From Euglena gracilis (Eukaryota): DNA of 64,000 nt. Position 1 is the stretch's first letter; every line of letters starts with the position of its first letter. The position numbers were made by a program, and so were the translations under genes. This document shows, one piece after another, positions 12,401 through 61,162 of the stretch. Below the pieces are notes generated by a model. That model saw nothing but the letters and a program-made list of their open reading frames with translations. It ran no database searches and was not told the origin of the DNA. The stretch covers positions 20,508,642 to 20,572,641 of the forward strand of contig CP154954.1 of assembly GCA_039621445.1 (NCBI GenBank). Reading direction: 5' to 3'.

Positions 12401-14082
12401 CCTGCGGCGTTCGCAATTGCAGTTCAAAATCTTGTTGAAAAAGTGGGTGAGCTGGTCGGATGGCAAGCATGGTACTTGGATGATGCCCATCTCGTGGGTA
12501 CCCCAGCACAACTGGAGACAGCAGTCCGATACATTTTGCGAGAAGGACCCCTCATTGGGGTTTCCCTGAATATATCCAAGTGTCGATTGTGGGGACCTGC
12601 CTTTGGAATGGAGTGGTCCAGCCTCCCAACCAACACAACCCCGCTCCAACAAATTCCGGTGCAGGAATATTCTGAAGCAAGTGGCCTCAAGGTCCTTGGA
12701 CTGCCAGTCTGCCACCCAGCAGGGGGGGCGTTCGCCTCCACTGTTTGGGCTCCACGAGTCGAAATGGTTCTGAAGGCATGCAATCTCCTACAGCTTGTGC
12801 CAAGTGCCCATGTCCAGTACACCCTTCTGCGTCAATGTTTGGATGCATGTCGCGTCAATGACCTACTGAGGGGAACACCACTGCCGCTTGCTGGGGACCA
12901 ATGCTTATTGCTGAGCCACTGTTTACGAAACACGCTGAGTTGCATCATGACAGGACCAGTTGATGACAACCAGTGGTCACAGGCCACCTTGCCACCCCGT
13001 TTGGGGGGACTAGGAATTAAGGATCCGCAGGAATGCCGACTCGCTGCACGGTGGTCAGCCCAACTGGACTTCCTCCAAAGGGCAGTAAACGTTGTTGGGA
13101 CTTCCGGACTTCGTAATCCGCAATATGAAACCACCAGATTTTGACTCCGCACTGACATTGCTGAAGATCGTTGGTGTTGAAGGTCAACCCCTGCAGGCCT
13201 TAACAGATGACTCCACCCGTGCCACCCAACTACCACGAGAAATGGTGTCACAGAAACACTGGGGGAACGTCTGCTCAATGCTGCGCCAAAAGAAACTGCA
13301 AAACTCCCTGTCCGGATCCGATGCCATCCGATTTTCCTGCCAAACAAGGCCTCATGCCATGGCCTGGACGTGTGCAGTCCCCTCTGCTGGCACAAAAACC
13401 CTTGTTCCCACGAAAGAATTTGTTGCCCTCCTCCAATGGACGCTTGGCGCTCCTGTGGTAAAAACAGAAGAGAGCCACTCTCCCGCATGTCCACGATGCA
13501 TGAGCCCACTTGACACAGCCGGCCACCACCTCGTCTGCTGCCACCGTAACAACCTCGTTCGGCGGCACGGGGCAGTGCAAAGCTTTGTCCTGAACCTGGC
13601 ACAGCGAGCTGGCTTTCCTGCACGTCGAGAAGAAAAAGCTGAGGACGGAACTCGACCGGGCGATGTTTTCATCACTCGATTTGACGCAAATGGACCCGCA
13701 GCCATTGATGTCACAGTCAGACACCCACTAGCACCCTCCAGGTCACCTCCAGCTCAGGTGGACAATTGGCACACTCGACAGGAAGAAGACAAAATTGCCA
13801 AGTATGGGGACCCTTGCAAGCGACGAGGCTGGACATTTATCCCACTGGTGATGGACTGCTACGGTGGCATGAGTGAAGCAGGCCAAGGATTCGTCTCCAC
13901 ATGCATCCGCCTCCAAACAAGCCAACATAACGGCTGGGAGAGAGGGGGGTGTGGAGGCCAGTGCATGGCAGGGACTTGGAATGGCTTTGATGCGCGAGTT
14001 GGCAAGACAACTGGCATGGGGACAGTGCCCTGAGCAACTACTTGATTGCAATAGCGGTGGTACGCATTCCCCATACTTTTGA
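9443..14082 (+). pseudogene. Retrotransposon polyprotein (reverse transcriptase / restriction-like endonuclease), two frameshifts
   Basis: Three overlapping ORFs (9443-13144, 13092-14033, 13873-14082) give a continuous RT-ZnK-REL protein. The C-terminus matches the copy at 29005-29187. Confidence 0.85.
9708..9873 (+). repeat. 24-bp tandem repeat (CTGGGCCTGCAAAGGCCCCCTCAT), ~7 copies
   Basis: Seen directly; encodes LGLQRPPH repeats. Further dispersed copies at 10160-10315. Confidence 0.9.
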
Positions 14083-18433: not shown

Positions 18434-18689
18434 GTACAAAGTAAAACATCTGTGAGGTAAGATGCGGCAGCAAGACTGGGCATTCAATTCGCTCGTGAAA
18501 ATTTTCCATCGTGAAATTTATGGCCGGCCGTTGAAAATTTCACGCATTTTTTCAAAAATTTCACTCGTCCTTAGTATGGAAGACGTATTTCCTTCGTGGT
18601 CCCTATTGAATGCAAAGAAGATTAGCGTTCATCAGCCGTGTCTGAGACGAATCTATGTTTAAGTTTGCCAGCACTCATGGCCAAAAAAT

Positions 18690-19310
18690 TGACCACAACC
18701 TGTGGTCAAAAACTGACCAGGACCTGTGGCCAAAAACTGGCCACCACCTGTGGCCCAAAACTGGCCAGCACCTGTGGCCCAAAACTGGCCAGCACCTGTG
18801 GCCAAAAACTGGCCAGCACCTGTGGCCCAAAACTGGCCACCACCTGTGGCCCAAAATTGGCCAGCACCTGTGGCCAAAAACTGGCCAGCACCTGTGGCCA
18901 AAAACTGGCCAGCACCTGTGGCCCAAAACTGGCCACCACCTGTGGCCCAAAACTGGCCACCACCTGTGGCCCAAAACTGGCCAGCACCTGTGGCCAAAAA
19001 CTGGCCAGCACCTGTGGCCCAAAACTGGCCACCACCTGTGGCCCAAAACTGGCCACCACCTGTGGCCCAAAACTGGCCAGCACCTGTGGCCAAAAACTGG
19101 CCACTGTGGCCCAAAACTGGCCACCACCTGTGGCCCAAAATTGGCCAGCACCTGTGGCCCAAAACTCCAGCACCTGTGGCCAAAAACTGACCAGCACCTG
19201 TGGCCAAAAACTGGCCAGCACCCGTGGCCAAAAACTGGCTACCACCTTTTGTGGCCCAAAACTGGCCAGCACCTATGCTGGCCACCACCTGTGGCCCAAA
19301 ATTGGCCACC
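18690..19310. repeat. 24-bp minisatellite (TGTGGCC[A/C]AAAACTGGCCA[G/C]CACC)
   Basis: About 25 tandem copies, open in all six frames. Confidence 0.93.
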
Positions 19311-21312
19311 AAACCAACAAAATCACAGTGCACCAGATTACCATTTTGGACAGACAATTTAAGATCCTAGTCACAACAATCACAGCAGAATCAGAAAATA
19401 CACGCATTGTCTCGGATGGCTGCAATAAAAACAAAATGGAGCAGTTTTGCAGGGACATGCTCAGGTCCAGATTATCAATTCCAATGGCTCATCATCATGT
19501 CCTCCAATGATCTCATTCCCAAGCATATAATTCAACAACTGTGAGACCTGAAGCAGAGAAAAATGAAAATTCTCTGACAGAATTGTTTGGCAAACCTTTG
19601 TCATGGGGAGCTTGGCAATACAAATCCAACACAAAGTCTTCACCAGTACACTTTCTTTCGCATCTGCAGCAGGCTGTCCACAAAGTATGAAGCCAATGGC
19701 TTTCCCAATAACGTCAGATAACACAAGTTCGAACTGTTCATGAAGTTGAACTCCACTGCCACTCTTTCAATCCTCCAGATGCCTTCTGCACATCATCCCA
19801 GTGAACAATAATTGCAACAAACATTTGTGGCAACAATTGAATTGAACCTCCGTCTCCTTGAGGACCTGCAATGAGCGTTTCCGGGCCACCCGCCCGCTTG
19901 TCCGACATGTTCATGAGAGAAAAACGGACGCTCAGAAGGAACGGCCGCTTGGGTATTTCCTAGTAGGATTCTCCTATTTTTTCAGTGAAAATATTGAAAT
20001 TTTTGAAAATTTTGAAATTTTCTGAAAAAATAAAAAATCTTGAAATTTGCCCAGTCTTGTGCGGCAGGGAAGGAGTGAGGGCAAAACCCCGCAACGGTGG
20101 TTCTTGCCGCGGTAAGTGTCTCCATCTCTCCGTTGTTGCTTCTCGTTTTGCTGCGTGCTGCTCCCCGCGGCTGGTGCTGATGTCATCGACTTGTTTGCTC
20201 GCCTGGCGTTCTGGTTGGCTTATCTTCTTTCTTCTGGCCTTTTGCTTTTACCATGTGGCATGCTTTGGTCGTAGCAGCTGCCAAACTTGACTCACCTCAA
20301 TGCCAAAATTTTAAAGAAAGTGGCTTATAAAGAAAATTTCTGCCGAGCGAAGGCAATTTTATGCAAAAAATCAGAAATTGGCCATTCTTGTCACGAATCT
20401 CTTAGGTATGGCAGTTTTTGAAACCACCCATCCGGATAGTTTTTCTCATTCGTAACCTAAATAAGAAGCGTTGAGATGCTAATTTGCCAAATTTGAGGCA
20501 TGTGGAGCCTTTTGTGGCCCTCATTGGTGCCAGTTTATGACATTTTATGGACATAGAGGTGACATAGAGGTAGAGGGGGGTCGGCACACCCCTCCCCCCC
20601 CCTCACCAACCCCCTCGCCACGCCATTTTACCCCCCCCCCCCCTTTTTAGACCCCCTCGCCACGCCATGTCAGGCCCGCCAAAGAAAATTTTCTTGGCAA
20701 ACCCCCGCGCACCCCTCCCCCCCCCATCCGGGACACCCTCGCCACGCCAAACCCCCCCCCCCCTAGCCGGATACCTCGCCACGGCGTGCCGACCCCCCAG
20801 AGGTAGAGGTAGACGTGGGTCAGATAGAGGTAGAGGACTTTGACCTCTACCTCTACCTCTATCCAGCCCTGACTCAGCACGTACCGAGCACACACAGCAC
20901 GCACCGCTGTACATGTTGTACATAGAACGGAGGTTAGGCAGGGGTGGGGGGGGGCCTGTGGACCCCCCCCCCCGGTGAAGTTCACCGGTGAAACTTCACC
21001 GGGGGGGGGGGGAGGGGGGGGGTACTTTCGGCGGTGAAGTTCACCGGTGAAGTTCACCGGTGAACTTCACCGTTTTGATGGTTGGGGGTGAAATTTTCAT
21101 GGGTAAAATTTTGCTCCTTTCCTCTCAAAATGGTCATTTTGAGGTTGATGCTTCATGTAATTTTATCGAAATTTCCGAAAACTTGCCCAAAATGTCATTT
21201 TTTGGCCATTTTTGGCCAAAAAGTGCTCTCTTGGTGAACTTCACCGGTGAAGTTCACCGATGGGTTAGGCAGAGGGGGGGGGGAGGGGGTCCGGGACCCC
21301 CCGGTGAACTTT

Positions 21313-25830: not shown

Positions 25831-26142
25831 GAAAAAACATGGCCGAAAAGGGTCCTAGGTCGGGTCGAGGGAGGGGTCACGGGGGGAACACCCCCTCTAA
25901 AGTTTTCTTTATGTGTGAAAGTATTTCCAAATCTGTGTTTTCTAGTGCAAAAAAATCATGCTTTCAAACCCCCCCCAAAAAAACAAAAAATGAATGCTGC
26001 GGAGATAAAAAATGAACTTTTTTCTAAAAAAAAATGCAAAAAATTTTTCCCCTAAGCCGTACATGACGTTTTTTTTAAAAAAACATATTTTTTCAAAAAA
26101 AAACATGTTTTTTTTTGTTTAAAAAAACAAGCCGTCAACCTT

Positions 26143-26540
26143 GGGTGCCATCCTCGGCTTTCTCTTCACGACGTGCCGGGAAGCCAACTCGCAAGGCTCA
26201 GGACAAAGCTTTGTACCACCCCATGCCGTCGAGTAAGGTTGTTGCGGTGGCAGCAGAAGAGGTGGTGGCCAGCTGTGTCAAGCGCACTCCTACATCGTGG
26301 ACATCCAAGTCTCCCTCATCCGATTTTACTACAGGAGCACCCAGGGTCCATTGGAGAAGGGCACCAAACTCTTTGGTCGGAATGAGAGTTTTCACTCCTA
26401 TTGAAGGGCATGCACATGCCCAGGCCATTGCATGCGGCCTTGTTTGGCAAGCAAACCGAACGGCGTCGGCTCCGGACAAGGATTGTTGCAGTTTCTTTTG
26501 GCACAAAACTGAGCAAATGTTTCCCCAATGTTTTTGTGAC
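26143..26540 (-). pseudogene. CRE-like retroelement fragment
   Basis: SQKHWGNICSVLCQKKLQQSLSGADAVRFACQTRPHAMAW is nearly identical to the main element. Confidence 0.85.
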
Positions 26541-28484: not shown

Positions 28485-29187
28485 AAGTGGACAACTGGCA
28501 CCACCGACAGGAGGCAGGGTTGACGTTAAAAAACAACAACAAAAAACATGTTTTTATAAAAAAAACCCGCAAAAAAACATGTTTTTTGAAAAAGCAAAAA
28601 TTGACCTTTTTCCCTGTGAAATGGCCATTTTTTGAGGAAAAAGTTCTAAAGTCATTTTTTTTGGTCATCAAAGTGACGTTTTCTTTCGTTTTCCCAGACC
28701 CTTCATCCAAAAATACTAAAATCATGGTTCATGTGAAAACCATCACCCTTTACGGACTACGAAGTTGCATGACCTTTCTCCTTTAAAAAAGATTCAAAAA
28801 AGTTTTCACCCAAACCCTCCGTGGCATTTTTTTTGTTTTTTTTATTCAAAATCATATTTTTTTAAAAAAAGACATGTTTTTTTTTGTTTCAAAAAAAACA
28901 AGCTGTCAACCTTGACAGGAGGAAGACAAAATTGCCAAGTATGGAGACCCTTGCAAGCGGCGTGGCTGGACCTTTGTTCCCTTGGTCATGGACTGCTATG
29001 AGGCATGAGTGAAGCAGGACAGGGCTTCATCTCCACATGCATCCGCCTTCTGACCAGCCAACACAACGGCTGGGAGATGCGGGGTGTGGAGGCCAATGTG
29101 TGGCAGGGAATTGGAATGGCATTGATGCGAGAGCTAGCCCGACAATTGGCTTGGGGGCAATGCCCTGAACAGCTTCTGCTGTGGTGA
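28485..29187 (+). pseudogene. CRE-like retroelement 3' fragment (REL C-terminus) interrupted by a MITE
   Basis: VDNWHHRQE|EDKIAKYGDPCKRRGWTF..LMRELARQLAWGQCPEQLL. Confidence 0.88.
28515..28914. mobile_element. hAT-like MITE, 8-bp TSD ACAGGAGG
   Basis: Ends CAGGGTTGAC...GTCAACCTTG, exact 8-bp duplication. Removal restores the retroelement reading frame. Confidence 0.88.
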
Positions 29188-30704: not shown

Positions 30705-33700
30705 ATGTCCTCCACCCCAGCCGACGTCCGTGCCGCATGCCTCAAGGCGGCCCGCCCCGACGCCAACCACGGGCTGCCCCCCGCCGAGATCCGCTGAGGG
30801 CGCTGCAGGAAGGGCAGAAGGGCCTGTCAACGGCCGACAAATGGTGGCGCAAGGTTTGCGTTCTCCAGCCGCGTGTTGGATCCCGGAAACTTTAAACGCA
30901 AACAGATTTGTAAGCAAAGCACCCAAAATTTCCCCAAAGCGTGAAGGGTGTGGCTTTTCACAACGGGCGCCCTTTGAAATCTTCCAACAAAAATTCATCA
31001 ATGATGTCCGATCCCACCCCAAGAGGATCCTTGTCTGCGGGCATCCAGATCCGCCCGTAGGGGGCTAGGGGGCTGGGGGGCTGGGGGGGGGGATTGGGTG
31101 GACCCTGTTTGATTTTTTTTTTGTGCAGGCTGTGTGCAATGGTTTTCTTCATCAACACATTCTCAATTTTTACAAAGTATTCTTGAGAGGATTATTTCAG
31201 GGGCTGGCGAAGAACAACGATGAAGAATTTTGCAGCTGTCCAGCTCATCTTGGGGAGTTGCGAGTTGAGTTGCTTTTTTGCTGCTCACTTCCTGTGCTTT
31301 CGCATGGCCCTCCCCCTTTCCATGGCTGCACATTGGGACGAAGGACGACGCCCTGAAATTGCCACTCTTGGATGATTTGAATGTGAAGCCCAGGACCACC
31401 CCCACACAGGCGGAACCCTGGGAACCTGGATATCTGGACACCACACATTCATTTATCCCTTGTGTGATCCCACCCCCTGGAGGGGGACGGGTGAGTGTAT
31501 TTTCAAAAGTGGGTGGGTGGGTTTGGACCGCTGCCCCCCCCCCCCTTGGGGTGGTGTGCGCCAGGGCAGTAGGTTGGACAGAAAATTCTTAAGGGTTTTC
31601 GGCTGATTTTCGGGCGATTTTGGGTGGCTGAGTGGGTGCTGTGGATTGGCAGGTTTTCAAAAAAAAAAGTGGGTGGATGGGTTTTTGCCCAGGAAAGTGC
31701 CAGGGGGTCATTACGTGAACAGCCCCGCCCCCTTCCTTAAGGGGCTAAGTTTTAGGTCAGAAGTTTCTTTCGGCACCTTTTTTTCAGAAGGAATTTTCCT
31801 GCACTATCCTGCTCCGTTGGAAACTCCAAGGCCAGGGCAGGGGGGACATGCAAGTTGCATAGTTTGCTTTTTTTTGCATACTGAATTTTTCTTGCATTTT
31901 TTTTGCATTTTTTTGCATTTTTTTGCATTTTTTTTTTGCATTTTTTGCATTTTTTTGCATTTTTTTTTTTGCATTGGGTATTTTGCCCCCGGTCAGCAGG
32001 GGATTATTTTTTTTCCAAGGGGAGGGTGCGAAGCAAATTGCAGAATTTTTGAAGCCCCGCCGGCCACCGCTGTGTAGGGCCTGGGTGACGGGAAGGTGGC
32101 CGTAGTGCTGGGTGGTGCTGCCGCGGACCGTGATCAATGCGGGACTGAACAAAAGCAATCCGGGGCCTGCCCAGTGGGGAACTAGCGACTTTGCATCCTG
32201 GTGGTGCTGTCCAAATCTCAATACTAAACATGCCCACAAACCCCTGTGCTCACCAACCTATCCTTAATCTCAACCTATTCTTTTGTCTCCTGTCTCTGCA
32301 CCTGCTGATAATTATTCTTCAATCTTTTTTTATTTTTCACTCCTAATTTGTAAATACTTTTCTCAAATAAATACACTTCTTCTGTGCTTCGTTTTCTTGA
32401 CCTTTGAATCAGCTATATTTCAGTCGGGCCTAATGAAAATGAAAATGACCATGCATTGAGGGGAAATGTCTGAGAGTCCAAAAAGAAAGGCCAGGGGGCC
32501 ATGTTTGAATTGAAAATTGAACCTTCTCGGTCAATTTTTGGCGCTGAAAATCATGCGGAACAATTTTATCCCCCTCCCCCTGTATATGCTAAAATACAAC
32601 TGCAGCGACACTGATACACATAAAAATGGTATTGAGGCAATAGAAGTAGGTACACGCTGCCCAAACATTCTTTTTGCCCCTCCAAAAACAGTGCCTCCAA
32701 ATCAACTCCCTGAGAGCCTAAATTCTGCCCAAATATGAGGCTCTTGGCATTGTTGGTACACATTCAGGAAATGTCGTAAGATGTGTGGGAGTGCAGAGGC
32801 AGACAACAGCTGCCCAATGATCTGTATGACTTTCCCAATGCTTCTGGTTTCAGTTCATTGGGGGCAGGCTTTTGCTTAAGGGATTGCAGTTCCCCCGGGG
32901 GGGGGGGGGGCTGGGCTGCAGCTAGTCCAAATCTGGCGAGTGGGATTTCTAGCAGACCCCCCCCGGGGGAGTCTGCTAGCAGGGCTAGCTAGTGGAAATT
33001 TTTTTTCCAGTGCCCGGCGCTTCGAATTTTTTTTGGGACCCCCAAAAATGGCCCAAAATGCCCGTTTTTGGCCATTTTTGGGAATTTTTGGAACAAAATC
33101 AGCCAAAAACCTGTTAAAAACCTCATTTTTCCAGTTCGGGGGACCCCCGGACCCCCCCCCCCCCAGGGGGGAGGGGGTCTAGCTAGTCCACTTTTTCCAG
33201 TGTCTAGCCGATTGGCTAGCCAGTGCCCCCCCCCCCCCCCCCGGGGTCCTTAAGCAAAAAGCCTGATTGGGGGGTTATTATTTCGGCCGTCAAAGTTGGA
33301 GGCGAGGTGAATGTTTTTTTGGGTGTTTTCATCGACTTTTCCCCTGCAAGTTTTTAGGAGTAAATGGGTGTCAAACAAACAAACCGGAGTTTGGTGTCAA
33401 ATGTGGTGTACTAAAGATCTCTTATTCCAAACCAACAAATAAAAAGCACGAGGAGAGCACGACCCTGCCTTGGCTCTTGGGCCCTCTTGTGAAATGCAGG
33501 GAGTCCCCCCATGTTCATCTAACCCCCCGGAAGGGGACCCAGTTATTGAAAGATTTCATTTGTTTATTTTCAATCGTGGGTTGCACCGTTGCTGGCCAGC
33601 CACTGCCTCGGACTTCTACCCCGGGAAAACTTACGTCCCGACCAGAGCGCCGCTGAAGCCCGGAGGTCCTCTGGGACCCTCAGGATCCGTCCAAGCAGTT

Positions 33701-43000: not shown

Positions 43001-46000
43001 AAGCAACAAACAGACGTTTAAAGTGGCCTGAAAGTGGCCAGAAGTGGGTAAAAATGGCCAAAAGCAGAGAAAAGTGGTCAGAAGTAGGTTAAAGAGGCCA
43101 AAAGTGGTCAAAAGAGGTCAAAGCAAAGCAAAAGCTGGCCAAAAGCAGCCGAAACACAGCAAAAAAGTGGGCAAAAGCAACAAAAGTGACCAAAAGAAAG
43201 CAAAAGGTAGGAAATAATGGGCAAAGGCAGCAAAAATTGACCAAAAGTCGGCAACAGTGGCCAAAAGACAGTCAAAAGCAGCAAAAACTGGCCAAAGGCA
43301 GCGAAAAGTGGCCAAAAGTCGGCAACAGTGGATTGCGTGATTGTGGTATATGCTCATTTTTTGTTGGCCTGCCCCCCACCTACAGCCAACTACTTTGCCG
43401 CCCGCCGCCGACCGCAGCCGACCGCAGCTGACCGCGGCCGACCGCGGCCGACAGCGGCCGACCGCAGCCGACCGCGGGCTAAAATTTGGAATCTGTCATA
43501 GGTGCTTTGACAGAGGTTACCGGTCGTTGGACATAGGGGGGGGGGGTGGTAAAAAAATATCTGGACATTTCCCCTCAGGCGCAGCTCTTCAGACAGGAGT
43601 TCAGCGAAGGTGGTCCTTTCGGAATGCCCCCTTGGGCGCCTGGACGGTGCCGCCCTGCCTTGATTGGCCTCATCGTCAGGTGCCCACCCCCCTCGTTGAC
43701 CTTCCAACGACGATGATTTGGGCTCTCTGGAACCCGTACCTGCGGGGGCTGCCTTTGCCCTTCTGGCCATCTTCCGACCGACTGCCGGCCGGTCACTGCT
43801 GCAGCCTCCCACCCCATCTTTGAGAACTGCCTCATCGCCCAAAAGCTGCCACCAGGGACCCCGACCAGGTGAGCACTGGCCGGAATATCGGTACCAGGTT
43901 GTCGGTTTGTCCCCAACATGGGGCTTACATTGTTTTTTTTTAATGTTAATTTTCTTGTGAATATTGGCCCTGGGAAGCTTTTTTTGCCCTGGTCCTGCCT
44001 GGGGAATTGTTAGGACCTGCAAGAGAAACCGCCAGGGACCTGTCCGGTGGTGGCCGACCGGTTTCCTGCGGGGGTGATGGGCGACTTTTCATGCGTCTCT
44101 GGAACAGACCTCTGTTTAGTGTGTATCGGCAAAAAAAATTTGTGTATCGTGTGTATCGGCAAACAATTTTTTGTGTATCGGTGTGTATCGGCAAAAAGAA
44201 ATTATGCATCGTTTTTTTTTTTGAATTTGTGAATCGGCTTTTCGAAATGAAGGATTTGACACCAAAGAGACTTTCCCATTTCTCAGCATCTCTCCCCCCT
44301 GGCGTGAGGCGGTTAGTGGAAGACGTCAAGAAGCAAATCAGTGCAGCTACAAGCAGCACACCTTGACAGATTCTGTCTGTCATGTGTTGAGCGTCTCAAA
44401 AAAAAGAAGAAAAAACAAAAAATAAAAATTCAAAAAAGGAGAGCCGGGGTATGGGCATGCGCAGATGTATCCGGGCCTCTGCATTTGCCATGTGAGGGAG
44501 TAGCACCCCTCCCCCAACCAGAACAGTAGGGTGAGATTCCCTGCCACATTTTACGGGTTGAGCCGGGGCCAATGTCCACATAGCTCTGTGGCAATGGTGT
44601 CAAAAGCTTAACCCATGTTTTTCCCCCATTTTTGTAAAATTTTGTGTATCGGTGTGTATCGGCAAATTTGTTTTTGTGTATCGGTGTGTATCAGCAAAAA
44701 AGATCGTGTGTATCGGTGTGTATCGCTGATACACATTACACATAGGTCTGCTCTGGAAACAACCTTCCTTTTTGGTCTAGGAGGATTGAACCTTGACCGA
44801 TGCACCTGCACCGGAATGCGGCGGTAGTGTGGCTGCACATCACCCCACAGCACACGTATGGGTGCTTTGCCTGGCCCCACCGCGGTGCCGCGACGGCAGC
44901 CTGTGCCTCTACTACCTGATGGACTTCGGCAGCGTGGTGGCCGCCTGGGCGGTCGGGGCGAAGCCGGGCGACCGCGTCCTGGACCTGTGTGCGGCCCCGG
45001 GGGGCAAGTCGCTCATCCTGGCTGAGGCAGTGGGTGAGGGAGGACGGGTGGTGTGCCTCCAGGGCGGCGGCCGACCATCTGCCGTGTTGGTTCAGGTAGT
45101 TATGCCGGAATGAAAGGTGTCTTTCTCTTTCAAGTGCGATCGCAACTGTGTGTGTATGTGGTGTGTAATCGGTAAGTGAATGAGTGAGTGAGTAAGTGAG
45201 CAAGGCAGCGAGGGGGAGTGAATGCCTGCGTGTGTGTGCGTCCGTGCGCGTGCGCATGTGCATGAGTGAGTGAGTGAGTGAGTGAGTGAGTGAGTGAGTG
45301 AGTGAGTGAGTGAGGGAGTGAGTGAGGGAGGGAGGGAGGGAGGGAGGGAGGGAGGGAGGGAGGGAGGGAGGGAGGGAGGGAGCGAGCGAGCGAGCGAGCG
45401 AGCGAGCGAGTGAGTGAGTGAGTGAGTGAGTGAGTGAGTGAGTGAGTGAGTGAGTGAGTGAGTGAGTGAGTGAGTGAGTGAGTGAGTGAGTGAGTGAGTG
45501 AGTGAGTGTTTGTGTGTAAGGACGTGTGCATGTGTGTGAATTTGCATGTGCTCACGTGGATGTCATGCATTTGTGTTGCAAATCTGTGAACTTGCTTGAA
45601 TCAACACATGCATCAGTTGCATAAATACATTCATGAACAAAAATCCTTTCTGCCACAACATGCAAAAACAACATAAAGTTGAAAAGGTGTCAAGGACGGA
45701 GGAGGGGGGGTGCCAGGACTCGAAGAAACCTGGTGTGGGTACAACTGACTTCCAACTTAGGTCCATTTTTGGGACATTCAGGGGTCAAAAATCGATTTTC
45801 AAAAAAATATTCAAAACCCGCGGGGAATTGAAGGAAACACCTGGGGGGCAAAATTGAAGCCCCTGGGACCGCATAACCACTGGTGGAGACCCAGAAACCC
45901 AGCTGCACCACCAGCCTGAGAAACGGGCCGTCGGGGGTCCAAAACACGGGCCCCCAAGGGGGGACTTGGGCATTTTTTGACCACTGTGGGGGTGAAAATC

Positions 46001-49000
46001 AACTTTTCCAAAATATCTCGAAACCCATGGAAAATTGAAGGAACCCCCTCCCCCCTGGATGTCGGGAGGGGGATCCAGGCCCTCTACCCAACAAAAGTCG
46101 AGAAAATTTCTTCCAACTGGCGCCGTAGATTCCAAAAAAATTCCCTCAAATTTTACATATTTTCTCATTCTTTGGTTCTCTTTTGCATGCTTGCACAATT
46201 TGGAATTTTTCATTTTTTTTGGCAGATGTGTTTGGCACATTTATTTCTGTTTTCAAAGTGTATGTTTTTGATTTTTTTTTATACAGGTGATATTATTTTG
46301 AAAAATATTGTTTTAGAAAATTATTTTTTTCTGAAGTTCTGTATGCATGTATCTGTATGCATGTATGTGGTGGTTATATATTAGGTCACCAAACCTAAGC
46401 ATTGCATAAGCACAATGCGTTCTGTGGAAGTGTGATACCCACGCACGCGAGCATCCCCCAGGCAACCCACGGCCCATTCTCTGGCCCACTCCGTTGGCCA
46501 CTGCCCTGCCCGCAACGAAATGTCGGCCCCACGGCGGGCGCGCCTCCTCAAGGTGCTGAAGGACTACGTGCCGTACGCGCGGAAGCACGTCGCGGCGGTG
46601 ACGGGCTACGACGCCACCCAGTGGCGCCGCAGCGCCCGCGGGGCCCCCGTCAAGTGCGCTGCCCTGGCCCGGCCGGTGCGACCCAGGACTGCGGAACTGC
46701 GACCGCCGCCAGTGAGAAGGAACCCCACCCCATGTCCATCAAACCCCCCTTTTCCATTTTGATGTCCGCCCCCATGCGGTCTCCGGTTCAGCGTGGAGGG
46801 TGGCGAAGGCGGTGTGCTTTTTTCAAGACCCCACCGTTGAGTGCTGAGGAAGCGTGCTTTTGAACAAGTAGGGCTTAACTCCCTGCCTCTCTGGACCGAA
46901 GAGGGTCCAGGGACCCCTCAAGAACCAACATTTTCCACATTTTCCTTCCCTGGCACTTTGCACCAGAATAATTATGTTTTTTTTATGTATTATCTGTTGA
47001 TATGCCAACAAAGGCACCCAAAAACGATTTTTTTGGCATTTTTCTTCAATGTGAAGATGAGCCAAAAATTGTCAAGGATGGGTTGAAAATGGCTGCCCAG
47101 TCGAATCTTGGCAAACCTCGACATTTGCATAATCTGCAGTTTTTTTTGGGTTTTTTTTTGCAGTTTCAATTTTTTTTGTTCCCGGTTCGACCACAGGTGA
47201 GGTCAGTTCCAACCAGGGATCCTATGGAGAGAGGCTTTTTCCAGCCGGCCCAAATTTGCCAGCCTCTAAGCCTCTGAGCTGGACCCCCCCCAGCTTCTCG
47301 GGGCTAAGCTACGCCCTGCTTCTGTCCGCCTCACGCGTCCACCATTACCCCTTCCCCACCCCATCCCGCAGGGACTTCCACGCGGTTCTGCTGGACGCCC
47401 CGTGTTCCTCGGAGCGCCACCTGCTGCATGACCCAAAGGAGCTGTTGACGTGGCCCCGGCGTGTGCTTTTCAGCAATCGTCTGGTTGCGACGGGCTGTTG
47501 ATGGAGCAACGCGAGGGAGGGGGGTAGGCAAATTTTGTGTGTTTTTTTTGTGTTTTTTTGATTTGCCGAAATTTCGTATTTTTCATATTTTTCGTTTTTA
47601 TTGCTTTTTTTGGTTCTCTTATGTTTTTTTGCGGCATGTTTTTTTGACATCCGTGTTGTGGTCCCCCCCCCCCCGCGAAATGGGCCAGCGCAACATCCAC
47701 AATAGTTTTAGGACGATGCTTACCACCACGATAGGAGGGTGGTTTCCACATTTGTAGGGCCCCCACTGTGGGCACAAGCACCCACAGTGGTGCCCCTCTC
47801 CAAACAGCTCATACCTACCCCCCCCCCCCCGGGAAACTGTCATGCCCGAGAACCTGTCAGGGTCCCGCACGGGAAACTGTCAGGGTCCCCGGTACCGGCC
47901 AACCTGTCAGTATAGGAAGTTGTCAGGATCCCCGGTACCGGCCAACCTGTCAGTATAGGAAGTTGTCAGGGTCCCCGGTACCGGTCAACCTGTCAGGGTC
48001 ATTTTTCATTGACTTTCCCTTGAAATGCCCTACCCGGGAAACTGTCAGGGTCCCGCTCGGGAAACTGTCAGGGTCCCTGGTACCGGCCAACCTGGCATGA
48101 TAGGAAGTTGTCAGGGTCCCCGGTACTGGCCAACCAGTCAGGTGACAGTTTCCCGGGCCGGGGGGGGGGGTAGGTATTCGCCTGCACTGGACAAGGTCCG
48201 GACGGTGGGGGCATCGCCTGCATGGTTTTCAGCTGTGCAACACCACACTACCCCCCCCCCCCTCGTGACAACTCCCGACTCCAACGTTGGCTTCCCTTGC
48301 AAAGTTGTCCTTTGGGGCAGTGCTCGCCACCGGGACAGATGGGGAGGTTGCCTCCCCCTCTTGTGCTTGCCAACTTGGCCGAAGTCAATTCCCTGAGGGT
48401 TGGGGGAGGTACGACGTTGCCAGGCAACAGATTCTTAGGCACCCTCTTCCTCATGGTGGAGGGTGGAGGTGCTGGCAGTGGGCATTTCTCCGCTCGGTGT
48501 ATTCCTGCTGTTTGGGGGCGGAGGAACCCAGCAACAGGGAATCTTGGGGTATTTTTGGGGCATTTTTTTTTCATTTTTTCCCATTTTTCCATTTTTTTCC
48601 ATTTTTTCCCATTTTTTCCCATTTTTTTCATTTTTTTCGTTTTCCCCCCTTTTCCCCCCATTTCCCCCTTTTTTTCCATTTCCCCCTTTTTTTCATTCTC
48701 CCCCGGTCCTGCCAGCGGAACTTCATCGGGTGGTCTTCAGCGCAAGCCTGACAGGGACCCCAAAGCGCACCAAGCAGAACGCCAAGCGCCAGCTGGACAT
48801 CCTGTTGCAGGCCATCCACGCCGTCGCCCCTGCCCCAGGGATGCCTCGGCGTTCGGTCCCTGCCAAACACAACATGGCAACATGGGCACAGACACATGGC
48901 CAGGTCCGGAATTGAGATCCCCGACCTCTTTTTTTTGCCCCAATTGGTGAAATGCTCAAAGGTGAAAAGGTGAAAAGCTCTTCTCTTTTGGCCTTGGAGG

Positions 49001-51357
49001 CAGCTTGAGGTTCTAAAATGTTTGCAAACAGTTGGACAGTACAAAAGTGACTCACGATTTCACCATCCGGTATTTATTCAAAGGCCTCTAAATTTAGTGG
49101 TGTCTACTTTTGGGCCAGCCAGAAACCTTTGGGGTGGGGCATCTATGGTAGGATACCACAAAATTTGTTTCTCATTTGTGAAACACATTAAATGGGTATA
49201 TGCCTTGTTCTCTATCGAATATCTAATTTTCTGCACTAAGTGCCAACACAATTTGCAGCCACCCCACCCATCTGCTTCGAAGTCCTTCATCCATGTCTAC
49301 TCAGATTCACGGGACGTCGTAATACCCCAACACACCAGTGTGCACGCGTGTGTGCGTGTGCGTGTGTGCGTGTCTGTGTGTGGGGTTTTTTTTAGCAGCC
49401 AACCTGGCTGCGGAGGCCGGCTGCTGTATAGCACGTGTTCTATTTCCCCACTGGAGAACGATGCGGTGGTGGAGAAGTTGGTGAAGAAGCGCGGCGATTT
49501 GGTTCAGGTCCGTTCATTTCATTTTGCCAATGAACGCAATTCCCAAAAATTTCCCCCTCTTCAACCTTCTTCAAGTCCCCGCCCCCCTTCCCCTTCGTCC
49601 ACAAACACAAACCTGTTCCCCTTCCCAAAGCTTCCAGACGGCTCTATGCAACTGTTCATCTGTTGCAACTGTTCGGCCTGCAACTTTTACAACTGTTCGG
49701 CCTCTCAAGAAACGTGTCAGATGTTGGGTTTCTCCGAATCAACGAGACACGAAGCGGTCTGCATCAGAAAATGGCTGGGCACCAGCTTTGCCGGCCACAC
49801 AAACAGAATGTTGAAGGCAGCATCTCGAAAGTAATCCTCGACACACGCACATGCATTCTTACTCATACGCCCACATACGACTGGCACACACACGAACAAA
49901 ACACACACATCTTGCACCGCTGCAGCACAGAAGACGTGGGCAACCGTTTGGTCACCCTTGGTCACCCGGAGGGGGGTGGGCGGTGGGTGGGCGGTTGGGT
50001 CCAGGCTTAGACCCCCTCCCAGGGGCGGTGGGGTTTCCTCCATTTTCGACCCGAAGGGTGTACCCTACCCCCCCCCCCCTTTCCGCGGTTCCACCAGCGC
50101 GACTACCAACCAGAGTGAGGAGGAGTACAGGGCGCTATCAGAGCGGCCCTTCCCCCCACCCCCCGCCCACACATCCCACAGGTCCCCCCCCGCCTCCCGG
50201 CCCTGCAGGTGGCCACGGAGGCCGACTTCCCCAACAGTCCCGCGGCGCTGGGGGCGGAGCCGACGCGGGTCAGGCAGGGCTGAACGGAGCCATCCCCCAC
50301 CTCCTCCGCTTGCCCGCTGGGGGCCGCTGAGCGACGCCCTGATGGGAATCCCAGACTGGGAGCCCGGAGTGAGGGGAACCCAACCTGCGGGGGGGGGGGG
50401 ATCAGCCAGGTAAGTCCCGCCAGGCTCCGGCCACCTCCATGCACACGGACAAAAAGGGCCAGAGGCGAAAAAAAAACAGCGCCAGGCCAGAAGAAGGGAT
50501 AAAAAGGCACCGTACAAACAGCCACACATGGGGCGGGGGTGAGCCAGCCGCCAACAGCTCCCGTCCAGCGGGACCCGTCCCGGGCCACCCCCCGGCCAGC
50601 CCTGCAGCCGGGTGGACGTTCCTCCCCGACCGGTGCGGGTGGGGCCCGCTGTACTTCAGCCTGCTGCTGGCCCGGCCCCGGGCCGCTGCGGAGGCCGGGG
50701 GCGAAGACGGGGACGGGGACGGGGAGGAGGACGAGGAAGAGGAGGATATGTGGGAGATTCCTTGTTTTTTTTCGCCTTGCCTTCCCGCGGGACCCATTCC
50801 CGGGTTGGGGTCGGATGGGGCATGAGTGGGATGAAGGTTTTCTGTCCTCCCAAGTGGGTGTCATTGTTGAAGACGACGTCCCCCGCCTTTCCATCTGTGG
50901 TCCGAAAATTATTGTGGCGTGCAAATATCGCGCACCGTCATTTTTAGGACAAAAAAGCAACAAAAAAGCTGGAGCGACCACTGACTGACCGATTGAGGCA
51001 GGTGTGGCTGTCAACAAAAGTTTAGACTGCTCTACAAGAACGTCCGAAAGTGATATTTAAAGCGAGAGAAACAAGAGACAAAAGACAAAGACACTATCCA
51101 GACAGACATTGAAGGGTGAGCTTTAAAACCGCTGGGTCTTTGCATGCCCACGGCCTTGAAAGGTTGAGGCAGACCAGCTGCCAGCCCATCACGCACTGCG
51201 TACGCATTTTGCATTTCCCGCTCTGCCTGAGGGCGATCCGGCCGATGGATGTCCCAGCCACGCCGAGGACTCTGGGGATGAGCCCATGGGAGAGCGGAGG
51301 CGGGCTGAGGCTGAGGACCCCGAGGAGGAGGAGGAGGATGATGAGGAGGCCTCGTAG
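40035..51357 (+). CDS. NOL1/NOP2/Sun-family RNA m5C methyltransferase (NSUN3/NSUN4-like), multi-exon, 5' end not found
   Basis: Exons ~40035-40124, ~40861-40910, (unresolved), ~44877-45056, 46514-46653, 47372-47452, 48756-48831, 49412-49507, 50209-50271, 50610-50747, probably 51226-51357. Motifs FDAHY..GGRW, YYLMDFGS, VLDLCAAPGGKS, VLLDAPCSSER, LLYSTCSISPLEND, FLPD..GWGPLYF, plus an acidic tail. Confidence 0.88.
44105..44750. mobile_element. hAT-like MITE, 8-bp TSD CTCTGGAA
   Basis: CAGACCTCTGT...ACATAGGTCTG with subterminal TGTGTATCGG repeats and an exact TSD. Confidence 0.88.
45057..46513 (+). other. Nonconventional intron (methyltransferase)
   Basis: CTC-CAGGGCGGCGGCCGAC...GTTGGCCACTGCCCTG-CCCGC (13 WC + 2 GU of 16); splicing gives GRVVC|NEMS. 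Confidence 0.85.
45263..45508. repeat. Compound (TGAG)n/(GGAG)n/(CGAG)n microsatellite
   Basis: Seen directly. Confidence 0.95.
47453..48755 (+). other. Nonconventional intron (methyltransferase)
   Basis: GCC-CCGGCGTGTGCT...AGCGCAAGCCTG-ACAGG; splicing gives LLTWTPKR. The junction can slide by 1 nt. Confidence 0.7.
48832..49411 (+). other. Nonconventional intron (methyltransferase)
   Basis: GCCCCAGG...CCTGGCTGC with Y|R junctions; splicing gives AVAP|GGRLLYSTCS. Confidence 0.72.
50272..50609 (+). other. Nonconventional intron (methyltransferase)
   Basis: AGG-CAGGGCTG...CAGCCCTG-CAGCC, perfect 8-bp stem; splicing gives EPTRV|GWTFLPD. Confidence 0.85.
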
Positions 51358-54300
51358 TACTGCACTGCTCCCTTCCATGGCACAGCTCCCCTGGCCGACA
51401 TCCCGTTACTTGCACCGCCAAAGAGCTCCTATGTTCTGCGGGCAAGCGACACCGCATGACTGTAGGGGGGATGTGCAGAACCCTTTTCTTTGTGCATATT
51501 TCGCATATTTAGTGCACGTTTCACTTTTTTTGGCCAAAAGCGCATAGTTTGTATATTTTGTGCATGTTGGGAGGGTTTTCAGAATTTTCCCACTGCATAT
51601 TTTCCCAGCCTCGCATATTTTCCGCATATTTCCTGCATCTTATTGGGGCCATTTTACTTTCTTCCACCTTCTTTTTAGGCCATTTGCTTTCATTTTTGGG
51701 ACCATTATGGCATTTATTTGGGCCATTCTGAGTCCCTGTGGGCCATTTTTGGGTCATTTTGGACCACGGTTGGCCATTTCTGGACATTCTTGGCCACTGT
51801 TGGCCTTTTTTTTTTTAGCAAATCAGCTGTTTATTAGGTCATTTGGGCCATTTTTCATTACAAACTCATCCAAATTTGCTGACTTGCCAGTTGGGTCACC
51901 TGAACATGTCCAAATATGGCCCAGCTCCAGAAATATCACATATTTTCCACATCCTTTCCCGCATATTTAGCACACATTCCTGCATATTTTAGGGGGTGCC
52001 TTTTCGCACATACTTCCCCCCATGACTTCCTGGGCCAACCCTTTGACCTATCTTGAAGCCCCTCTTGAAGCTGGGCCCTCGCAGGCTGGCGGAGCAGGTA
52101 CCATTCACTGAGAGACCCCAGACTTGTCGGAGGTAGGAAAGGGCATCCATCATCCATGCTCAAAAGAGGGTCATTTACTGTCCCATTTTGTCTCATTTAT
52201 TGTCCTATCTGAATTTTAAGGCGAAGCCGACCCCACCCCGGGGTGTTGGAGCAAGAGCTCCAAGGCACCCAGGTCCGACCCCAGGGGGACCATGGCCAAA
52301 GTGCTTGGGCACTCGACGAAGGCACTCCGTCGCCAAAGGTGCCACAAGCCAAATGCCGAGAAACGGCCTTTTTTGGACAATCTTCGCAATTTTGGGCAAT
52401 TTGGGAATTGTTTTTCTCGGCCAGGCAGGCACCGACCCCTCCGGGGGGTGCCTGCCTGCCTGCCAGCCCGGCACTCCAGGGCACTTCAGGGCACTCCAAG
52501 GGCCGCCATCCCCCTTGGGTTGGTGGAAACTCCACCCCTTTCGCATCTGATGACGACCCTGGGTTTGGTAAACCCCTCCCCCCAAATAATAAACCCCCCG
52601 GTTTATTATTTGGACACCCGAAGTCGGGGTCCAGGGGGGTTTATTATTTGGGGGTGTTTATTATTTGGGCAAAAATTTCGAAGTCAAAAATTGACCCGAA
52701 AACCCCTCCACAGGCTCCAATGGTCACTTTTTTTTTTGGCATTTTTGGGCTTTTTTTTTGAAAATTGGGTGCTTTTTTGGCATATTTTCTGCACCAATTT
52801 GATCCATTTTTGTGTTTTTTTTTGCAGCATTTCTGCTAATTTTTGACTCTTTTTTTCCTTTGCCCTCACACCTGCCAGAGGTGGGGGTTTATTATTTGGG
52901 CGGCCGAAGTCAGTCCTCAGGGGGGGGTTATTATTTGGGGGGGTTATTATTTGGGGGGGGGGGGAGCTTAGTTGTGAACCACCCCCACCCCGATGCCTCG
53001 CCCTTCAGCGGATGAGGGTAAGGCCCTCAAGGTCCTCATGAAAGTTCTATGTCGTCCTTGCTCCTTAACGTCTTCGAACCTAGACCCCCCATGTCCACAT
53101 GTCCAATGAACCCCTTGCTCAACGAACAGGGGGTGTCCGGGCCGTCCAGTTTGTAACTTTTTACAGCAATACAAATGGCCATACAATCCATGCCCAATGA
53201 ACGTCTCACATCCAGATTGACCGTCCAGATTTTCTCTGTATTGTTCATTGGGCTTGTGGGGGGGGTACGTCAAGTCCCCCCCCCCCCCCCGCACCCTTTG
53301 AAACCTCCAAATTCCTTTTCCGCCACCCCCACAACCCTTGTGTTCCACCATCCATGTGCCACCTCACCTCTCGGATTTGTGGGTCCCCAATCCCCCCCCC
53401 TTCTCTTCCGCAGCCCGCCGCCCTTCCTCTCCACAGCTGCCCCCTCCCCCAGACGGTCTGCTCGGTGATGGCTCAGACCCGCCCTGCCCAACCCAAGCTG
53501 CCCCCGCTCACCCAGCACTTCGCCCCAACCCTGGAGGCCAGAGTTCTGGGGACGAGGGTCCTTTGGTCGGGAAGGGAGGCCAGGAGACCACTGTAAGAGC
53601 TGGGAGAAATATGGGAGGCGGATTTTCTCCCCTGGAAAAGCGCAGAACCGAACTCCTGCCAAGTTTATCCTTTCTACCAACTCAGCTTTCTGCCAATGTT
53701 TCTAAAGCTCAATGCTACCCCCATCGCATTGGCCCATTCTACGGAACAAAAAGCCAGCGCCTTTGCCAAAATTTGTGGCCCGTTTTTTAAAAAAAATTCA
53801 TGCCAAATTTGTCACGTCCGTAATTTTGTTGGTGCCATAAAGTGTCGCCATAAATTCACCCGTGCCATGCTTCATGGGGTGGTCCGCCAGGCTGCCGTCT
53901 GACCCCACTCACCCCATCACTGTCAGTTTGGTCTGTTATTCGGTGGGGTGGGGGTACGCCCCCCCCCCTCACCAGCATTTTTCCTGCCCATTTCTTTGCA
54001 ACAACATTGGAGGATTCTCTTGTGTGCCGGCTTTCCCTGGGGGGTGGAGCGGTTGCTGTGCTGCTTTGAAGGGGGGGGTTCAGCCCAGCCACCCCATCAG
54101 CCGGAATGCTGGTGCCGAGTACCAGAAGATGCGCAGGGATCGCCGTGCCTTCGTGAGAGGAATGCCATTGTGAGTTACCACGTCACCAGGTTATCAGGCT
54201 GGTCCCATTCAATGCCAAGTCAGGGAGGCTGGGTTCCTTTTCCTTTTCCGGGTAGTACATTTCGGGTGAGCAAGCCGCGGCGGCAACCCTTCTGAAGGAC

Positions 54301-55340
54301 TGAAGGGCTTTCATTCCGTCATGGTTTGGCCACTCCTGGCAAAGGTGGGTGATGCATTTTTTTTTTGCTTTCTTCTTGCAATGTTTTTTTTTTGGAAACA
54401 AGTTTTGATTTGTAACATTTTTGAGCTCTGGAGCGACTTCTCCTGCGCACCAGTATTTCATAGTTGTTTTTTTTTGTGTGGAGCTGTATATTTTCTTAAA
54501 TCCTCACAAGAAAGTGGCCACCGGCCTTCATTTTAACAACCTGGAAGGGGGGGCCCAAAATCCACAACTTAAATTTGGTACTTATTATTTTGGTATTTTA
54601 ATTATAATTTTTCGAGACAACCCCCAAAAATTTTATATTTGGGAGGGGGAGCTAATTTGCTTTAAAATTCTTTCAGATGTATGAATTATGGTGTTTTGAT
54701 CCACAAATCCTTTCGAAATGTTTTTCGAAAAGGTCTTTGAAAAATTTGGTCATTGTCTTAAAAAAATTTGCACGACGATGAAACTGAAATGCAGAGGATG
54801 GTCGCAAGCGATTTCATTCAACCCAGCAACACTCAGAATGCATGGCTGCGCAGCAACTGAAGCGGGCATACAGCTGTTTTTTCCTCCTCTGATGCTGTCT
54901 CAAACTACACAAAATCCATGCAAAAACGAAGCCAATGTTCAGTAACCCAACAAATATGTTTGGCAATTTGTCATTGGCATATCCATCCATCCAGTCTTCC
55001 AGCTTGCGGTGGGTGTTCCCTGAAGCCGGCATATCCGCAGATGCGCAAGCTGTTGCAGGATTTGCGAACAAATCCAGTCCGTTGTTCGGAAGTGGTGCAC
55101 TACTGCGGGCAGCAGCTGTTGAAGCATTATGCGAAATCCCTTGGCGATGAAGTATGTGATGCAAAAAAATGACGTATTTGATCCACTGCAGTGTACATGT
55201 ATGTGCGTGAGAGCGCGCATTCGTGTCGTGTGCGTGTGCGTGTATGTGTGTGCGCACACGTCCGTGTGTGTGCGCGCGTGCGCATGTTGCATGTGAACGC
55301 GTGTGCTGTTAACCCTTCCTCCTCCGTATGGCTGCTGCAG

Positions 55341-59548: not shown

Positions 59549-61162
59549 GACCAGCCTATGCCCAAGGGGGCTCATTTGCCTTCCTGCTGGGCTGCGACTG
59601 GGTCAGGAATACCAGTGAGGCCATCATGGGCCATCAAGAGGAGAGGGTCATGACCAACTTCCAACCCCCATAGCAGCGCGACGTGCTTGTCTTTTCCTCA
59701 GCACATCTTTTTTTTCTCAGCCACCTTTTGAGCCATGTTTTTGGGATCACTCTTTTGAGCAGGTTATTTACTGCAAAACGTGCCCCCTTGCCCAGTGCCC
59801 AACGGCCCTTCCCCCCCCCCCCCCCTGCCCCCCCCCCCCCCCATTTGCCCCCCCCACCGTGCCCCCCCCCCGCCCCCCCCCTTTCCTTTCCCCCCCACCC
59901 TCAACTCAAGGTTGGGGGAGGGGTGAGGCAAGAAGGGCTTCATTTGTGGGTGCTATGCACACATAGCATTACAATGATGCCAGGAAGGTTCAATCTTAAG
60001 GGCGGTCCTTAAGGGACAGGAAAGTCTTTTTTTTATTCCCTTAAGGACTGCCTCCCTTTCGGCCAAAGGGCCGGTTAAGGGCCAGACTGGGACTTGAACG
60101 GGGTCCAAAATTAAAAAGTCCAAAAAAAGCACAGTTTTTGATGATTTGGGTGGATGGATGATGGTCCAGGGGTGCCAGGAATCAATTTTTTTTTCCCGAT
60201 GTCGACGTGTTCTCACTGAAAAATGCCAAAAATTTCTTGCCATTTTCCTGTATATTTTTCACTGAGTGTGCTGGGACGGCCGAGAATTTTTTTTATTTGC
60301 TTAAGGACCGCCCTGCAAACATTCCTGGGGTGTTTGGCTCTCGTTTGTGCTGTTCTTAATCTTGATTTCGGAAAGCACCTCTTTCAGTGCAAAGCTGCAG
60401 GCAGGTGAGCCCCCCCCTGTCCTTGGAGACCCCCCACAGCATCCCGATGTGGTGGCGCTATTTCCCCTCGCCCTGACCGGTACCATTCACCACTCTGCCC
60501 CCCCTGTGGGGAGACTCCTTGGTTTGGCGTCCTCGTAGCTAGCGGCACACTACGGCACTGATTTGGCCCGCGACACGTGCGCCTCTGGGCTGAATGACGG
60601 AGACGCTTCTTCCCCCTCCTTTCCAACCCGAGCCTTCCAGCGAACCTCTGCTTGACTTGTTGGAACAAGTGTCTTTCACATCTGATGAGTTTTGTTTTGT
60701 CTCATGCTGGTTGTGATGGTGGTGTTTGTTTGTTTGTTTGTTTGTTTGTTTGTTATTTTTGCTTTGGTTCCTCCTTCAACAAAACAAAGTCATTTTGTGC
60801 TGCCAGTTCAACTCCAACTCTCCTCCCTGTTTAGGACTCTGGGTCTTTGCCTCAGCAATTTTCAACATGTGCCCTTGTGCGATTTTATAGTGAGGTTGTG
60901 TCCTTCATCCAAACATATTGAATGCCAGGAAGTGGGGGGGGGCAAGAGTTCGGACTGGTCTTGGAAAAACACAATCAAAATTTGGGAATATCCAGAATAT
61001 CCAGAATATCCAGAATGGCAACTGGTCTAACAATGATGCAAAGAGGCAGGCAAGGCATGGCCTGAGAACTCATGGATCACCGATGGCACCAAAAGTGCTG
61101 GAAGGAGCCGAATGTGTTGAATTTAAGGCATTTGGCAAGCCCTCCTATGCAAACATGCAGAC

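Follow-up and report, generated by a model that had tools for sequence, protein, structure and literature searches.

The window analyzed in this study, a 64,000-nucleotide stretch of DNA, carries two host genes, retroelement sequences, and short inverted-repeat elements of the MITE type that are flanked by 8-bp duplications (TSDs) (Table 1). The two genes, encoding EMC2 and an RsmB-F/NSUN-like methyltransferase, were recognized by Pfam and then mapped with the transcript-derived E. gracilis proteins P0002 and P0049, from which the exons differ by 0 to 3 residues per junction segment, a closeness that identifies the source as Euglena gracilis or a species very near to it. A search of representative proteins yielded only distant RsmB-F relatives, and a 286-aa frame that was searched whole against longer proteins matched no homologue. 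RNA reads of three runs cover positions within the mapped exons (e.g. 49489, 53496, 55094 and 59506). Reads at about 2-6x in the interval 60328-64000 (e.g. 19 at 62324 in X21) point to transcription of a third region, surrounding the MITE at 61163-61532; 66 ORFs from this interval gave no match to a Pfam family. The protein P0001, derived from an assembled public run, runs through the EMC2 GT-AG intron at 56674-57077 (within 56410-57162). Its exon parts are identical whereas its intron parts have diverged, so the contig behind it, which comes from a related strain, is either unspliced or genomic.

The retroelement at 9434-14043 consists of a reverse-transcriptase frame (9434-13141, 1236 aa with an RVT_1 domain) followed by a 3' ORF (…QEEDKIAKYGDPCKRRGWTF…). 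A second copy survives as a fragment (28480-29177) that is interrupted by the element on which this study is centered, referred to hereafter as the focal MITE. Palindromic repeats of the GACGCCGG type at 28360-28480 also break this second copy.

Other repeats and coding families are present as well. Two segments of ~430 nt (25400-25830 and 27567-27992) share 95-97% identity at the translated level, and near them lie 32/63-nt tandem repeats (25151-25306 and 27108-27261) that are mutual reverse complements. A coding family lacking a Pfam match occurs in three copies on the reverse strand (4275-4825, 21891-22325 and 26640-27090) with 27-40% protein identity. Short repeats of another family, whose inverted ends are of the GGTGAAGTTCACCGGTGAAGTTCACC type (17703-17897, 21050-21241 and 23893-24084), are situated between poly-G/poly-C runs and do not belong to the CAG...CTG type. 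Microsatellites include (ATGT)191 at 38161-38920 and, within the methyltransferase gene, (TGAG)61 at 45263-45508 in intron 6 and an impure (TG)106 at 39780-39982 in intron 1. Intron 8 of this gene harbors a ~367-nt element (47811-48177) with ~32-nt inverted ends, and 47876-48097 is occupied by hairpin modules of ~34 nt that recur in the form CAGGGTCCCCGGTACCGGCCAACCTG. Summed contig depth from run X1 in the region of this element is 4.6-7 x 10^5, compared to ~150 in unique bins.

Table 1. Coordinates of the elements, genes and nonconventional introns mapped in the window.
Feature	Position	Strand	Details
Focal MITE	28515..28914	.	400 bp, 30% GC, TIR CAGGGTTGAC / CAAGGTTGAC (9/10), CAG...TTG ends
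TSD of focal MITE, left copy ACAGGAGG	28507..28514	.	8 bp, read from sequence
TSD of focal MITE, right copy ACAGGAGG	28915..28922	.	8 bp, read from sequence
Paralogous empty site, single ACAGGAAG	13778..13785	+	3' ORF of intact retroelement copy
Focal-family partial copy	15711..~16030	.	5' end CAGGGTTGACG kept, 3' end gone
Focal-family partial copy	~26012..26143	.	3' end ...CGTCAACCTTG kept, again ...CCTTG
MITE 32865-33265 with TSD ATTGGGGG	32857..33273	.	CAGGCTTTTGC... family
MITE 34295-34572 with TSD GGTGGGAA	34287..34580	.	CAGGGATTTT... ends, 69% GC
MITE 44105-44750 with TSD CTCTGGAA	44097..44758	.	Nested in methyltransferase intron 5 (nonconventional, 43863-44878)
MITE 61163-61532 with TSD ATGCAGAC	61155..61540	.	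Family of 32865-33265
Sixth element 18471-20059 with TSD TGCGGCAG	18463..20067	.	Ends CAAGACTG...CAGTCTTG, TIR 10/10
RsmB-F/NSUN-like methyltransferase gene, 380 aa	39679..51354	+	13 exons; Pfam, then P0049 (eukprot EG_transcript_15255)
EMC2 gene	53468..59545	+	10 exons including a 15-nt microexon; Pfam, then P0002 (eukprot EG_transcript_15154)
Nonconventional intron, 1016 nt, contains MITE 44105-44750	43863..44878	+	GAC CAG...CTG GCCCC|A
Nonconventional intron, contains (TGAG)61	45057..46513	+	CAG...CTG N5|A
Nonconventional intron, 3+6, rich in high-copy repeats	47454..48756	+	CGG...CTG N6|A
Nonconventional intron, 3+6	48833..49412	+	CAG...CTG N6|G
Nonconventional intron	50272..50609	+	AGG CAG...CTG CAGCC|G
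Nonconventional intron	53510..54116	+	ACC CAG...CTG GTGCC|G
Nonconventional intron	54131..55027	+	GCG CAG...CTG AAGCC|G
Nonconventional intron	55420..55962	+	CAGGGTTGG...CCAACCCTG, 9-bp perfect stem, N3/N5|G
Nonconventional intron	58682..59419	+	ACC CAG...CTG CTGCC|A

The focal MITE inserted into a retroelement copy

The focal site reads ...ACAGGAGG|CAGGGTTGACG...CGTCAACCTTG|ACAGGAGG..., with flanks that agree at 8 of 8 positions. An uninterrupted counterpart is present in the intact retroelement copy, which reads ...CACTCG ACAGGAAG AAGACAAAATTGCC and contains the 8-mer once only. This site agrees with the left focal flank at 19/25 positions and with the right one at 38/40, and the sequence to the right of the focal MITE (28915-29177) is 84% identical overall to 13778-14042 of the retroelement 3' ORF. 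Because the paralogue has a single 8-mer, the duplication at the focal locus arose on insertion, and the paralogue represents a true empty site. The focal feature is best explained as a MITE that inserted into a nuclear genome of the Euglena gracilis type and duplicated 8 bp of its target through a staggered cut. The first-pass annotation observed that removing 28512-28919 restores the peptide RQEEDK. This is correct according to the empty-site paralogue, and also trivial, since the same holds for any element that is removed together with one TSD.

Two partial members of the focal family are found elsewhere in the window, one retaining the 5' end and the other the 3' end. The latter copy again terminates in TTG, and thus the TTG terminus is a family-wide trait rather than a peculiarity of the focal copy.

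The window contains at least six elements with exact 8-bp duplications

Five elements with exact 8-bp TSDs and CAG...(C/T)TG ends had been listed by the first-pass annotation, and all five withstand inspection. Their flanks agree at 8/8 positions, their terminal inverted repeats (TIRs) agree in 9 or 10 of the 10 outermost bases, and their ends are CAG...CTG in four cases and CAG...TTG in the focal MITE. Scans of the window added the element at 18471-20059, which has CAA...TTG ends and contains a 24-bp x 24 tandem array. The window therefore holds at least six such elements belonging to at least four families, with perfect TIRs of up to 17 bases. The 8-bp TSD is exact in 6/6, although two of the six can be read as 9 bp via one ambiguous base. 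The exactness of the TSDs in the original five is partly an ascertainment effect, because scans recover only well-kept elements. A chance control was made with all CAG..CTG pairs of the whole window that lie 30-3000 nt apart and have a TIR of at least 8/10. Flanks agreeing at 8/8 were found for 4 of these 1046 pairs, compared to 0.016 expected, and six controls with shifted flanks gave 0, 0, 0, 1, 0 and 0.

The elements at 32865-33265 and 61163-61532 are two copies of one family, with 86% identity. In run X1, the bin containing the latter has a summed contig depth of ~1.4 million versus ~120-175 in unique bins, where depth is not equal to copy number. The elements are located in retroelement debris and in introns, and not in exons alone; apart from the focal MITE and the one within the methyltransferase gene, they occupy unmapped DNA. 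For no MITE in the window does excision leave a frame that is open for at least 40 codons on both sides. The possibility that the MITE at 34295-34572 splits a coding exon was considered and dropped, as the adjoining DSPc match (E=0.005 among 148 ORFs) was judged to be due to chance.

Host introns of the same window

Introns of the two host genes were classed by listing all donor/acceptor pairs that reproduce the protein and then checking the fit to each rule. The 21 introns mapped in this manner comprise eight of the GT-AG type, seven of the form N3-CAG...CTG-N5|purine, two with 3+6 spacing, and four that fit neither rule. For the seven code-type introns, the fit lies within the positions that the protein allows, and the stem begins at +4 and ends at -6. 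Among the four that fit neither rule is the intron at 43603-43779, for which a 3+5 stem with GAA/TTC can be discerned by eye, and three to four of the 21 are nonconventional introns that are off every code. The first-pass annotation had counted about eleven host introns with a stem spanning +4 to -6. The geometry is real, but the number is seven when the rule is strictly applied and at most 10 when introns with stems starting from +4 are included.

Repeats of 5-8 nt are also present at the junctions of GT-AG introns in the window, and therefore junction repeats alone are not specific to the nonconventional class. In EMC2, a microexon of 15 nt (54117-54131, GAGTACCAGAAGATG, encoding EYQKM) has a code-type nonconventional intron on each side.

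The ends of four elements correspond to the published splicing code

A cis-acting code for euglenid nonconventional introns, 5'-N3CDG-/-CH'GN5-6|R, has been established by knock-in experiments (Nomura et al. 2025, PNAS, PMC12501133). The tests reported there show that splicing requires a 5' spacer of 3 nt, the CAG/CTG triplets and the stem, and that 5 nt is the optimal length of the 3' spacer; even fully synthetic 50-bp inserts that obey the code are spliced (PMC12501133). In the same account, ~39% of E. agilis nonconventional introns lie off the code. Arithmetic on the counts given in that paper indicates that junction repeats make 81% of the nonconventional introns in E. agilis 'slidable', compared to ~44% estimated for a one-base chance match.

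Euglenid nonconventional introns as described in these sources (PMC12501133; Milanowski et al. 2013/2016) share with four of the six MITEs the CAG/CTG triplets, the adjacent stem, the spacers of 3 and 5 nt, and the purine at the exon start. The MITEs described here differ in that they are free-standing repeats, have exact 8-bp duplications, and reside in non-coding DNA. The first-pass annotation had proposed that an element plus one 8-bp TSD is equivalent to N3 + CAG...CTG + N5. This arithmetic is correct, and it agrees with the code as given in PMC12501133.

When read by eye on the forward strand, 4/6 of the MITEs with their TSDs (32865, 34295, 44105 and 61163) satisfy the full sequence code and carry a purine at TSD base 6, whereas the focal element (CAG...TTG) and 18471-20059 (CAA...TTG) depart from the code. 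In all five of the originally listed elements, base 6 of the TSD is a purine on this strand. Moreover, the first triplet pairs with the last in the predicted RNA folds of 5/6 elements, the exception being the focal MITE, whose ends are predicted to be unpaired. The published single-base mutants suggest that the TTG end of the focal family is not spliced. With a TTG terminus that is off the CH'G code and ends left unpaired in the predicted fold, the focal MITE is, as modeled, the poorest intron candidate of the set.

No mapped intron of the window corresponds to a MITE

The first-pass annotation further pointed to MITE-family members that are whole introns, and to TSD-like identity at introns, as genome-wide marks of its idea. 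Neither stands out among the introns mapped in the window. None of the 21 mapped introns (0/21) belongs to a MITE family or bears a resemblance beyond the terminal bases. The sole MITE in a mapped gene (44105-44750) does not constitute a whole intron but is nested in a larger one. Nor do the 21 host introns have paralogues in other parts of the window, with the exception of a single match of 42 nt. When the 8 nt before CAG are compared with the 8 nt after CTG, identity is 3.43/8 for seven introns and 3.1/8 for 10 introns, versus 2.63/8 for mismatched pairs, a weak difference that is not significant (permutation p=0.13).

RNA mapping of 45520-64000, where depth over exons is ~1-5x, revealed neither a read-supported intron joint nor a skip over a MITE among the joints listed (15 of 406). 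Fourteen of these joints occur in X1 contigs only, and the remaining one is an RNA-read back-joint from 59842 to 59811 at a poly-C tract. This tract (59811-59884), which is located downstream of EMC2, draws RNA reads that fit only in part, in excess of 1000 for each run, together with the joint that 'goes back 32'. These signals are most likely a low-complexity mapping artefact.

Superfamily assignment of the elements

The first-pass annotation attributed the MITEs to the hAT superfamily. The terminal consensus of hAT elements is 5'-YARNG, with ends of the CAGGG/CAGAG type being typical, and their target preference is nTnnnnAn. MITEs of this superfamily (Ac/Ds, hobo and Hermes type) have an 8-bp TSD and short TIRs starting with CAG(G/A). 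The elements in the window share the TSD length and short TIRs with a CAG(G/A)-like start, but they conform only in part at the fifth TIR base and to the consensus for the target site. All six begin with CA, followed through the fifth base as CAGGG in two, CAGGC in two, CAGAC in one and CAAGA in one, such that G is the fifth base in 2/6. Among the TSDs, which constitute few sites and were read by eye, T is at position 2 in 3/6 and A is at position 7 in 4/6.

A Pfam scan of 482 window ORFs, outside of which lie 65 short ORFs in 47.7-59.6 kb, revealed no transposase of any family, and specifically no hAT transposase, BED finger or dimerisation domain. The attribution agrees with the TSD length and fits partly with the end motif and target preference, and the scanned ORFs supply no transposase to accompany it. 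Given the TSD length and the end motif, 'hAT-like' is a reasonable label for these putative hAT relatives.

Relationship to earlier proposals and to a young gapC intron

A MITE origin for these introns, with TIRs and TSD-like junction repeats, was proposed by Milanowski et al. 2013 (PMC3935182) and again in a 2024 review, and the 2013 paper remarks that no transposable elements had yet been identified in euglenid genomes. The accessible text of the papers proposing this origin differs from the present account in containing no 8-bp TSD, no hAT link and no source elements. The full-text literature that was searched likewise yielded neither the equation of 3+5 with an 8-bp TSD nor a hAT link for these introns, and free CAG...CTG MITEs are not described in the available portions of the E. 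gracilis genome and transposon literature that was searched. A general MITE origin and the 3+5 rule are in print, whereas neither an explicit rule of 8 bp nor free source elements seem to have been published.

The only documented recently gained nonconventional intron is gapC-4 of E. agilis ACOI 323, a strain-specific young intron with 'eight nucleotide direct repeats' (PMC4770533). Its junctions are reported as GTCCC|aac-cattaccttg...caaggtatg-gtccc|AAC (PMC4770533, Suppl. Table S3). In these junctions, the 8/8 repeat GTCCCAAC abuts a TIR segment, and the annotated cut falls after repeat base 5 (t5|t6). The gapC-4 intron (Milanowski et al. 2016, PMC4770533) thus resembles the MITEs in having a TIR segment with a flanking 8/8 repeat. 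It differs in its triplets (CAT/ATG rather than CAG/CTG), its length of 160-162 nt, and the inference of break repair made by the authors. For the older introns in the tables of PMC4770533, a hand count of 54 rows at nine positions gave a mean identity of 2.9/8 (per-position means 1.5 to 4.2), which is the expectation if TSDs decay.

Introners of Micromonas, Aureococcus and dinoflagellates (Mob DNA 2024, PMC11282704) are also short TIR transposons whose insertion creates an intron, and there too the TSD supplies part of the splicing needs and the mRNA is restored. Introners are removed by the spliceosome and draw a splice site from a TSD of 3-5 bp, whereas removal of the MITEs described here would be non-GT-AG and stem-dependent, with an 8-bp TSD presumably split 5|3 around the cut. 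Introner families comprise many similar copies that are each a whole intron in a different gene, a pattern with no counterpart among the 21 introns mapped in the window. Splicing of a transposon has a further precedent in Ds, which is spliced from maize transcripts (Giroux et al. 1994, as cited in PMC3935182).

Discussion

The window contains the insertions with their TSDs, the published code at seven host introns, and one MITE nested in an intron of a transcribed gene. We consider it probable that the focal feature is a non-autonomous cut-and-paste MITE residing in a decayed retroelement ORF, and that elements of the form TSD8-CAG...CTG-TSD8 constitute the cis-code of nonconventional introns and could be spliced without a scar. 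The element anatomy, TSD8 - CAG + inverted repeat ... inverted repeat + CTG - TSD8, matches letter for letter the code N3-CAG...CTG-N5|purine with paired ends. In the proposed mechanism, an element would land in a transcribed exon in either orientation, creating a duplication whose bases can be numbered t1 to t8. The nonconventional machinery would then cut at t5|t6 upstream and at t5|t6 in the downstream TSD copy. Such excision would take the element and exactly one TSD, restoring the pre-insertion mRNA if t6 is a purine. Under this mechanism, elements with an 8-bp TSD and hAT-like ends would be the main source of code-type nonconventional introns, and the total of eight unpaired bases would be fixed because other totals would leave a scar or a frameshift.

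The stronger claim is that most code-type Euglena nonconventional introns are domesticated CAG...CTG MITEs, and that cuts occur at 3 + 5 nt precisely because 3+5 is the 8-bp stagger of the transposase. We judge this claim to be evenly poised between true and false. The idea that MITEs are ready-made introns and the source of this intron class, which was advanced in the first-pass annotation, gains from the exact geometry and the young published intron and loses in that no intron mapped in the window corresponds to a MITE.

Several other explanations must be weighed against this proposal. The elements could be ordinary MITEs whose resemblance to introns is a coincidence, with the 3+5 spacing set by structural reasons of the splicing enzyme itself and most nonconventional introns having arisen otherwise. 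On this reading, many DNA transposons share CAG...CTG ends and 8-bp TSDs. The TSD signal at host introns is not significant, no mapped intron of the window belongs to a MITE family, introns with 3+6 spacing or off the code occur in the window, and ~39% of E. agilis nonconventional introns lie off the code (PMC12501133). Coincidence must nevertheless account for three independent features at once (the triplets at the ends, the stem next to them and a sum of exactly eight), and also for gapC-4, a documented young intron whose 8/8 repeat abuts a TIR (PMC4770533), and for a 'slidable' fraction in E. agilis that is well above the chance estimate. We regard coincidence as unlikely. Junction repeats could instead derive from double-strand-break repair, with the window MITEs as bystanders, as in the reading that Milanowski et al. 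2016 gave to the 8-nt repeat of gapC-4, for which the high break-rejoining activity of euglenids can be invoked (PMC4770533). Break repair predicts neither a fixed length of eight nor inverted-repeat ends that abut the repeat, and the same anatomy occurs in non-genic DNA of the window together with a paralogous empty site; we consider this explanation very unlikely.

It is also conceivable that the direction is reversed, such that introns excised as full-length circles re-enter the genome and the MITEs are escaped introns. Exact 8-bp duplications with TIRs are hallmarks of staggered cuts by DDE transposases, and the elements carry both; furthermore, they form distinct families with long TIRs of up to 17 perfect bases and sit in retroelement debris and introns as well, rather than in exons only. 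Against these observations, the ends of MITEs and introns are interchangeable in sequence, and circular excision products have been reported (cited in PMC11282704), but we consider this reversal the least probable of the explanations, with scarcely any likelihood. Finally, the model could be right and the superfamily wrong, the source being a non-hAT transposase that generates 8-bp TSDs (Merlin, P or another). The scanned ORFs of the window contain no hAT domain, and the G of YARNG is present in 2/6 elements only, whereas the CAGGG/CAGAG-type ends are hAT-typical. Merlin is represented in E. gracilis by two described families that make 8-bp TSDs, yet these, like all Merlin families, have TIRs that start with GG (PMC8101967). 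All six elements described here begin with CA, and the CA/TG lies inside the inverted repeat rather than in the duplication. We regard a non-hAT source as somewhat unlikely.

The question of how euglenid nonconventional introns arose dates back to the 1990s. In the window, elements that stand free, have suitable ends and are flanked by an exact 8-bp duplication adjoin genes whose introns follow the 3+5 code. The relation 3+5=8 makes the MITE-origin hypothesis quantitative, in that junction repeats should have a length of eight and should decay with intron age. If domestication of CAG...CTG MITEs is the true origin, insertion into an exon in either orientation would be silent from the first generation whenever base 6 of the duplication is a purine, and this would explain how it is possible for ~72% of the introns in a Euglena genome to be nonconventional. 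Host RNA processing would then be tuned to the cut geometry of a transposase, and euglenids would possess a second, non-spliceosomal route to mass intron gain.
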